In this document: in pieces, positions 33,489-34,825 of the stretch
Position numbering within the stretch: the first letter of the stretch is position 1
How the letters are laid out: each line of letters starts with the position of its first letter
Origin: Promethearchaeota archaeon
Lineage (GTDB): Archaea; Asgardarchaeota; Lokiarchaeia; Sigyniarchaeales; SOKP01
Length of the DNA: 64,000 nucleotides
Direction of reading: 5' to 3'
Assembly: GCA_048939995.1 (NCBI GenBank)
Contig: JBHLOY010000011.1
Location: 75,151-139,150 of the forward strand
Position numbers and translations under genes: made by a program
The notes under the pieces: model-generated
Databases searched by the model: none
What the model saw: only the letters and a program-made list of their open reading frames with translations
What the model was told of the DNA's origin: nothing

Positions 33489-34825
33489 TAAATCTTTTCA
33501 TCCAAGACTATCGTGTCAGTTCTTGCGGGACCAATTGAAATCATGCTTATATTTGTTTGTAATTCGTCTTTAATTGATTGAATATATGTTTTCATAGTAT
33601 TTGGTAATGAATTGTATCCTTTCTTAGCAATTTCTGACCACTCGTTTCTTGATATTTTGTCCCAACCTTCAAATTCTTTGTATATCGGACTACACTTTTT
33701 AATTATTTCATGATGAATCGGCCAACTTTCTAAAATACTTCCATTCAACTCATATCCAGTACACATTTTAAGGGGGCTTACTCCTTCTAAGGCATCAAGT
33801 AAAGTAATTATTATATTATCTATTCCATTGATCATAACTCCATATTTTAAATTGAAAAGATCAATCCAGCCTACTCTTCTTGGACGTCCTGTTACAGTTC
33901 CATATTCATGTCCTTGTTCTCGAATTTTATCAGCACTCTCCCCAAATAACTCTGTTGGAATTGTTCCTTCTCCTACTCTTGAAGTATATGCTTTAATAAT
34001 TCCATAGATTTTACCTATTTTTTTTGGTGGAATCCCTGAACCGGCACTAATCCCTAGAGCATTAGCATTTGATGAGGTGCCGTATGGATACATGCCATGA
34101 TCTATTCCCAATAAACTTCCTTGGGCTCCTTCAAAAAGAATTTTCTTCCCCCCATCAATTGCTTTGTTGAGATAATAGGCAGTATCAATTACATAAGGCT
34201 TTAATTGTTCACCATAATCTTTATATTCCTTATATATCACATTTATATCCATGTCCCAACTAGGGTCATAAATATTAATCAGTGCTTTTTTTAATTTAAA
34301 CAATTTTTCTAATTTGGTTTTCAAGATATCGGGGTTAATTAAATCAAAAATTCTTATCCCCCATCGTGCTGCTTTATCAGAATAAGCAGGACCAATTCCT
34401 CTTTTAGTAGTTCCAGCACTATATTCTCCTTTCCTTTCTTCTTCTAAACCATCTAAAATACGATGAAAGGGGAAAATTACATGTGAAGTTGAGCTAATTT
34501 TTAAATTAATCTTTTTATCTAATTTTTTTAAATTATCTATTTCTTCTAAAAGAACTTTTGGATCCACTACAACTCCATTTCCAATTACATTCTCTTTTTC
34601 TAGTGGAGCACCAGAAGGCATCAATTTGAATTTATATTTAATTCCATCAGCAACAATAGTATGCCCCGCATTATTGCCACCATTAAATCTCACAACAATA
34701 TCTGATTTTTGAGCTAAATAGTCGACAAACTTTCCTTTTCCTTCATATAGGGTTAAGAGCATATTGCATCTTTAATCTCCCCAACTTAGCCCAATAACAG
34801 CAATTGTGTTTACTTTATTGTCCAT
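33485..34825 (-). CDS. purA: Adenylosuccinate synthetase; two exons (34825-34777 and 34746-33485), 436 aa when spliced
   Basis: Exon 1 [16 protein letters not shown](D) joined to exon 2 [10 protein letters not shown] gives WGDEGKGK. Also [42 protein letters not shown]. Confidence 0.93.
34747..34776 (-). other. Putative 30-nt bulge-helix-bulge/loop mRNA intron in purA
   Basis: Minus strand: ...UGGGG AG^A UUAA-agaugcaauaugcuc-UUAA CCCU AU^A UGAA... Features: 4-bp helix GGGG/CCCU, two 3-nt bulges, intron stem, in-frame UAA. Removal restores GAU-GAA (D-E). Confidence 0.85.

Follow-up and report, generated by a model that had tools for sequence, protein, structure and literature searches.

RESULTS

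A 30-nt intron interrupts the coding sequence of purA

The purA gene of a Promethearchaeota genome is interrupted within its catalytic Asp codon by a 30-nt insert, which we confirm to be a real, conserved intron of the relaxed bulge-helix-bulge (BHB) type in a protein-coding sequence, and which is very probably spliced by the tRNA-splicing endonuclease EndA and the ligase RtcB. Positions without a contig name are those of the window, the whole 64,000-nt stretch of DNA that was analyzed, and purA lies on its minus strand. The gene opens at ATG 34825 and runs for 16 codons to Trp-Gly, after which a TAA (34774 to 34772) stands in frame; the purA frame picks up again at EGKGK and runs to 33485. 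The WGDEGKGK motif is restored only by 30-nt deletions, in three registers (34776 to 34747, 34775 to 34746, and 34774 to 34745), the first of which corresponds to the cut positions of the tRNA endonuclease. An earlier sequence-only reading had described this locus, including the downstream open reading frame and an internal ATG at 34762, and rereading of the sequence and a deletion scan agreed with it on each of these points. We therefore assign exon 1 to 34777 to 34825 (M...VIGLSWG-G; 16 codons and the G that begins the Asp codon), the phase 1 intron to 34747 to 34776 (G|AT), and exon 2 to 33485 to 34746, which ends at the stop codon and scores above the cut-off of the NCBIfam purA models. 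The predicted spliced PurA product has 436 aa.

Gene callers miss exon 1 and take the internal ATG (34760 to 34762) as the start of the intact downstream frame (33485 to 34762), giving a 425-aa product; truncated starts of this kind are common among public PurA records. Alignment to a solved PurA showed that the 425-aa product is without the first beta strand and the catalytic Asp of the enzyme. Taken at face value, the truncated protein given by gene callers and public records would make purA a pseudogene, or a gene that functions through the product from ATG 34762. Such a reading is highly improbable. The gene is present as a single copy in this 98%-complete genome, with no second, intact purA beside it, and instead of relaxed selection it shows a dN/dS of 0.10, as in intact genes (median, 0.104 in intron-bearing versus 0.102 in intact purA). 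Exon 1 is conserved: its N terminus is homologous to the N termini of intact relatives, and its last 10 codons have a pN of 0.14 against a pS of 0.55 among intron-bearing genes. The internal ATG is missing in most relatives, and the product that starts from it would be a PurA without its catalytic Asp and first beta strand. These data show that purA is under purifying selection and, since the only gene for PurA, essential in purine synthesis, is the one interrupted and dozens of relatives keep the insert, its mRNA almost certainly must be spliced.

Three other loci of the window were noted in passing. A gene at 34956 to 35846 (plus strand) is divergent from purA, and the neighbor at the same position in a related locus, L154, gave weak Pfam matches to IFT52/GIFT. 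By eye, a gene at 29247 to 30632 (plus strand) was judged to belong to the tryptophanase/tyrosine phenol-lyase family, and 35968 to 38685 resembles a TldD/PmbA pair.

The insert recurs at the same site in one family

When 400 genomes of the phylum were searched at the protein level, without a structure filter, a same-site insert was found in 29 genomes from four genera of one family: 9 in the genus of this genome (30 nt), 17 in a second genus (mostly 31 nt), and 2 and 1 in the others. The intron is thus present in about a quarter of the family genomes with a purA match (29 of 121). Genes for PurA that contained a stop or lacked the N terminus were confined, among the 150 best matches listed, to one Promethearchaeia (Loki-type) family; the named relatives are mostly Promethearchaeota, some of them carrying other Asgard labels from submitters. 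As the gene is purA and the relatives are Promethearchaeota, this is not the cbf5 intron of Sulfolobales and Desulfurococcales. Outside Promethearchaeota, scans of 185,579 genomes, and of metagenomes, for a pattern specific to this junction yielded only chance, non-purA matches; because of that specificity, other archaea may carry purA introns elsewhere in the gene.

With extra metagenome loci from the pattern scans, we collected 38 distinct inserts, 24 of 31 nt, 10 of 30 nt, and 4 of 32 nt. Thirteen of these came from a pattern requiring YYAN at the intron 3' end and are partly preselected, and 25 came from the protein search without such a filter. The insert shifts the frame in 28 of the 38, two of the 30-nt variants hold two successive stops, and the peptide that the insert would encode is not conserved. 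The genome is a 38-contig assembly, which might invite the suspicion of an assembly artefact, but the probability of one is negligible given 38 diverged versions at one site in independent assemblies and three NCBI protein records with the same or a one-residue-different truncated product.

One apparent stop-free, in-frame insert (P0149) was rejected, as the gene caller had read TGA as Trp. At L152 (298 to 927), a gene caller took a TGA in a 30-nt purA intron for Trp, and the resulting database protein carries 10 false residues in its P-loop.

The intron borders follow the endonuclease rule in all variants

We applied the endonuclease rule, a cut after the second base of the bulge on each side, to all 38 variants. 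The register that it gives restores WGDEGK in every one of them and is the sole working register in 20. In 21 of the 38, the Asp codon is absent from either side of the insert and arises only once the G joins AY. Because only one register restores the protein in those 20, and the Asp codon needs joining in those 21, the borders are placed independently of structure. The first intron base varies (A in 17, T in 11, C in 8, and G in 2), as expected for an unpaired bulge base; the last two are AT in 21, AA in 13, and AG in 4, and the exon always resumes with AY.

These borders also bear on a translational explanation, in which ribosomes would hop over the insert or read through its stop. In the bypass of T4 gene 60, a stop codon lies in a hairpin directly after a sense codon, and matched take-off and landing codons are required. 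In this genome, a hairpin holds a stop right after GAT, and a near-match, TAT, stands just ahead of GAA, a configuration that would suit hopping. However, matched take-off and landing codons occur in only 3 of the 38 variants, and neither hopping nor read-through would account for the 21 variants without an Asp codon on either side, the 28 frameshifted ones, the double stops, or the unconserved peptide. Judged on the variants, hopping is nearly refuted, and both it and read-through are excluded for most of them; as an explanation of the insert in general they are very unlikely.

The insert has a relaxed splicing motif with a covarying stem

In the predicted fold of the pre-mRNA splicing junction, a central helix pairs exon GGGG (34779 to 34782), which is invariant across intron-bearing genes, with intron CCCU (34749 to 34752). 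It is flanked by a three-base 5' bulge, AG^A (34776 to 34778; predicted cut between 34777 and 34776), and by a relaxed 3' bulge or loop, AU^A (34746 to 34748; predicted cut between 34747 and 34746). The intron stem-loop (34753 to 34775) consists of UUAA (34775 to 34772) paired with UUAA (34756 to 34753), followed by GA (34770 and 34769) with UC (34758 and 34757) and GCA (34767 to 34765) with UGC (34761 to 34759). The sequence-only reading had proposed a 3-nt bulge on each side: its GGGG/CCCU helix, 5' bulge, and UUAA/UUAA stem hold, but its AGA/UCU hairpin uses U34756 twice, and its 3' bulge is not strict. U34783 lies opposite U34745, and no exon-exon helix directly closes the 3' bulge as the canonical hBHBh' motif would have it, so that the modeled junction belongs to the relaxed HBh' (bulge-helix-loop) class. 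An 11-bp long-range exon-exon helix, 34794 to 34784 with 34719 to 34709 (overall 34709 to 34794), has a pair probability of 1.0 and closes the junction as a multiloop.

This splice-ready fold is the lowest-energy fold in fragments of 45 to 65 nt. In a 100-nt context (ViennaRNA), the central helix probability is only 0.08 for this genome; the 38 variants span 0 to 0.99, and 9 of them lie below 0.1. Because the helix probability is low in this context, the splice-ready form may be a less populated fold or one captured by the enzyme. A full 4-bp helix together with four stacked stem pairs at these offsets arises in 0.06% of 30-nt stretches drawn at random from this genome.

Aligned across relatives, the insert is patchy in presence, and its stem covaries. 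Intron stem pairing is found at 167 of 190 end-anchored positions, compared with 17 to 80 when the strands are slid; changes on both sides are seen at all six stem pairs, of which pair 1 forms in 36 and pair 2 in 37 of the 38 variants. The covariation score is 0.291, against 0.158 for shuffled and at most 0.157 for slid alignments, where the slid control weighs more, as the shuffle test is inflated by kinship. The central helix pairs in 149 of 152 cells, the best of all slides, with exchanges of G-C to G-U or the reverse; its exon strand is fixed by the Trp-Gly codons, which makes two-sided covariation impossible for this helix.

The exons differ between intron-bearing and intact genes as well. 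The Gly codon is GGA in 42 of 42 intron-bearing genes versus 16 of 41 intact genes, and the manner in which the junction is closed follows the Ser codon. With AGY, the exon pairs over at least 9 bp with codons some 30 nt further downstream, in 21 of 22 intron-bearing genes; with TCN, a local helix forms past a small internal loop (17 of 20). The corresponding closures occur in 0 and 9 of 41 intact genes, so that one or the other is found in 38 of 42 intron-bearing versus 9 of 41 intact genes, a comparison in which the thresholds were chosen after looking and the related genes are not independent.

Other kinds of element were considered and rejected. A group I or II intron has a ribozyme core of hundreds of bases against the 30 nt seen here, and an Rfam search with the insert gave only chance-level matches. 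A piggyBac-like TTAA duplication was discarded, as deleting it does not restore the frame. The genome holds no second copy of the insert, and the insert has no terminal repeats.

The host encodes a two-subunit endonuclease and RtcB

The host encodes RtcB and two paralogs of EndA, one at C3, 123986 to 124591, and one on C28. For one paralog, the nearest sequence is the catalytic subunit of Aeropyrum pernix (E value, 5e-37); this paralog retains the triad residues Tyr, His, and Lys and has a K-P-R that aligns with the Aeropyrum loop residues K44, P45, and R46, which are required for cleavage and tied to relaxed substrates (PMC12397907). The second paralog is without the His and reads as a structural subunit. 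An EndA of the two-subunit type has been linked to cbf5 splicing (PMC2738675). The host EndA is thus predicted to be able to cut relaxed motifs, with an RNA ligase present. As a separate observation, ARAGORN found only 20 tRNA genes in the 98%-complete genome, 12 of them with introns, which makes the genome rich in tRNA introns; many more tRNA genes are probably hidden through multiple introns.

Further coding genes carry BHB-type inserts

Six more short in-gene inserts of the BHB type were found in the genome. Proteins of three relatives were compared with about 580 of its loci by motif-free spliced alignment, which recovered purA and three more genes with frame-breaking inserts: metG (contig C6, 82172, plus strand; 32 nt), an acyl-CoA dehydrogenase gene (C17, 23476, plus; 33 nt), and a low-molecular-weight phosphatase gene (C17, 37247, plus; 21 nt). 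The full 4-bp helix is present in all four. BHB-type inserts were also located in the genes for EF-1alpha (C11, 167345, minus; 33 nt), FwdA (C17, 377452, minus; 30 nt), and a CoA-transferase (C38, 64707, plus; 31 nt), which brings the genome total to at least seven coding genes, purA included. Four in about 580 loci suggests roughly a few tens of such introns per genome, an estimate that misses shared introns and short first exons and to which sites in conserved motifs, being easier to detect, contribute more readily. A 67-nt "insert" at C26, 51969, proved to be a gene fusion in the reference protein, and several further matches came from antisense frames; both were rejected.

Among the relatives, two (L052, at 382 to 412, from genome G208, and L119) have a second, independent 31-nt insert in purA, placed after the His codon and before the Thr codon of NAGHT, that shares the geometry and follows the same cut rule; their purA messages therefore need two splicing events. 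In genome G280, a reverse search placed three inserts of 31, 30, and 31 nt in a MoxR-type AAA+ ATPase gene (L201; C10, 139548, 139712, and 139869, minus strand) at Walker A, in mid-gene, and just past Walker B. In genome G228, a 215-aa gene (L202; C1, 335882, minus strand) holds close to its 3' end a 30-nt insert that contains a stop and a 9-bp stem; its central helix has only three of four pairs in the register chosen. A small sample from a single-contig genome of a sister family (G044), 137 query matches to 400 kb, contained no interrupted gene.

The intron has been lost or gained repeatedly

Mapped on a tree of 83 PurA proteins, the presence of the intron calls for 12 changes, of which well-supported branches force at least 8; as the tree is unrooted, gain and loss are not separable on it. 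The insert sequences are alike within each genus, which shows inheritance within genera. One intron-free purA allele is nested among intron-bearing ones and is 96 to 97% identical to its sister, from which it differs at 6 of the 18 bases immediately before the junction (binomial, 3e-5). A cDNA copied from the gene's own message would leave these 18 bases unchanged, and we therefore infer that the intron was lost through replacement by a short tract of a diverged intron-free allele. An equally clear loss was seen in just one further pair of seven, so this route would hold for one or two cases and not generally. A pair of EF-1alpha alleles with 96.6% identity has the same pattern. Alleles about 96 to 97% identical that differ by the EF-1alpha or the purA intron, with clustered upstream codon changes, were noted in the comparisons of L203 with L204 and L205 and of L154 with L057.

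We searched 240 PurA homologues and their cluster members for an intact protein identical to that of an intron-bearing species and found no spliced purA product; the contigs traced in this search are metagenomic. The same search for EF-1alpha returned an intact and a truncated protein with an identical core, both of which are DNA alleles.

Intron-free alleles at 96 to 97% identity would fit another route to the same borders, by a different nuclease or ligase or by DNA excision in a subpopulation. The 3' side that is not a strict bulge and the weak splice-ready fold in this genome would likewise fit such a route. We consider it improbable. EndA characteristically cuts with a 2+1 geometry about a 4-bp helix, a pattern that recurs in seven genes and at the second purA site, terminal repeats and extra copies of the insert are absent from the genome, and the intron-free alleles differ in flanking codons and thus are not clean excisions.

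DISCUSSION

The observations strongly support an EndA/RtcB-type intron in purA with the exact borders first proposed from sequence: the register is pinned, the lengths shift the frame, the stem covaries, the gene is under selection, and the enzymes are encoded. In the mechanism that we propose, the pre-mRNA would fold with exon GGGG on intron CCCU, a three-base bulge on the 5' side, a loop on the 3' side, and the exon-exon helix further out. The predicted two-subunit EndA would cut after the second base on each side, and RtcB would join G to AU, rebuilding the catalytic Asp codon. On unspliced RNA, translation would stop after 17 codons. The intron is probably either old in the family or the product of more than one gain at this site, with repeated loss since, in at least one case through a short tract of an intron-free allele.

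The sequence-only reading had suggested that the intron couples AMP synthesis to RNA-processing capacity. Control of AMP synthesis in this way is possible, though we see no support for it: the intron is absent in most relatives and in alleles with 96 to 97% identity, and its patchy presence, with at least eight changes on the tree, disfavors a regulatory role. Easy loss argues that the intron is tolerated and not needed for control, and most likely it is a tolerated passenger. It is unlikely that tRNA-type splicing acts as a regulated step on tens of mRNAs, with EndA and RtcB activity gating nucleotide supply and translation; if that were true, the introns kept at catalytic codons (in purA, EF-1alpha, metG, and others) would form a non-spliceosomal splicing regulon in relatives of eukaryotes. 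The description of the host as belonging to the archaeal lineage closest to eukaryotes was overstated. The named relatives are mostly Loki-type Promethearchaeota, and Heimdall/Hodarchaeales are usually placed closer.

With a purA intron in about a quarter of the genomes of the family and at least seven interrupted genes in one genome, splicing of mRNA looks routine in these cells. Public annotations hold truncated enzymes without their catalytic residues. The 38 variants chart what a relaxed EndA substrate must retain, and the near-identical alleles with and without the intron show the manner of its loss.

The closest known system is the cbf5 pre-mRNA intron of Sulfolobales and Desulfurococcales (Watanabe 2002; Yoshinari 2006; Yokobori 2009, PMC2738675). 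Both are short coding-region introns that separate base 1 of a catalytic Asp codon from bases 2 and 3 (PMC2738675), mostly with a relaxed BHB motif, in hosts with a two-subunit EndA, and with loss in some lineages. In contrast to cbf5, purA serves purine synthesis rather than RNA modification, the phylum is different, its intron has undergone many more gain or loss changes (8 to 12), purA has a second intron site, and several further genes of the genome are interrupted. The splicing of cbf5 was shown by cDNA, whereas that of purA we infer from sequence. According to the 2009 paper, introns in other protein genes had at that time been predicted without confirmation (PMC2738675).

Introns with BHB or relaxed HBh'/BHL motifs are abundant in the tRNA genes of Asgard archaea, according to two papers in whose text searches found only tRNA introns discussed (PMC11291895; 10.64898/2026.10.13.758758). 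The purA insert is like archaeal tRNA introns in its size, its 4-bp helix, the cut after the second bulge base, its patchy repeated gains, and the predicted enzyme, but it lies in an mRNA and its closing exon helix is made of synonymous codon choices. An mRNA intron in the 5' untranslated region (UTR) of Haloferax volcanii HVO_1309 is a substrate of EndA, as demonstrated in vitro and by its circular form in a paper that names cbf5 as the only other mRNA case (PMC7714728); unlike the purA intron, it is outside the coding sequence, and its removal is not required for the protein. A parallel to XBP1 had also been drawn. XBP1 and HAC1 introns are likewise short, non-spliceosomal, and joined by a tRNA ligase, but the likeness ends there, as they are cut by IRE1 at two stem-loops under stress regulation and share neither endonuclease nor motif with purA (PMC13149111). 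T4 gene 60 shares a stop codon in a hairpin, although the matched codons are missing in 35 of 38 purA variants. A literature search, with most subscription journals outside its scope, returned cbf5 as the one coding-region case, plus the Haloferax 5' UTR intron. Relative to cbf5, the purA intron appears to work alike, and what would be new is another gene, another phylum, and many genes per genome.
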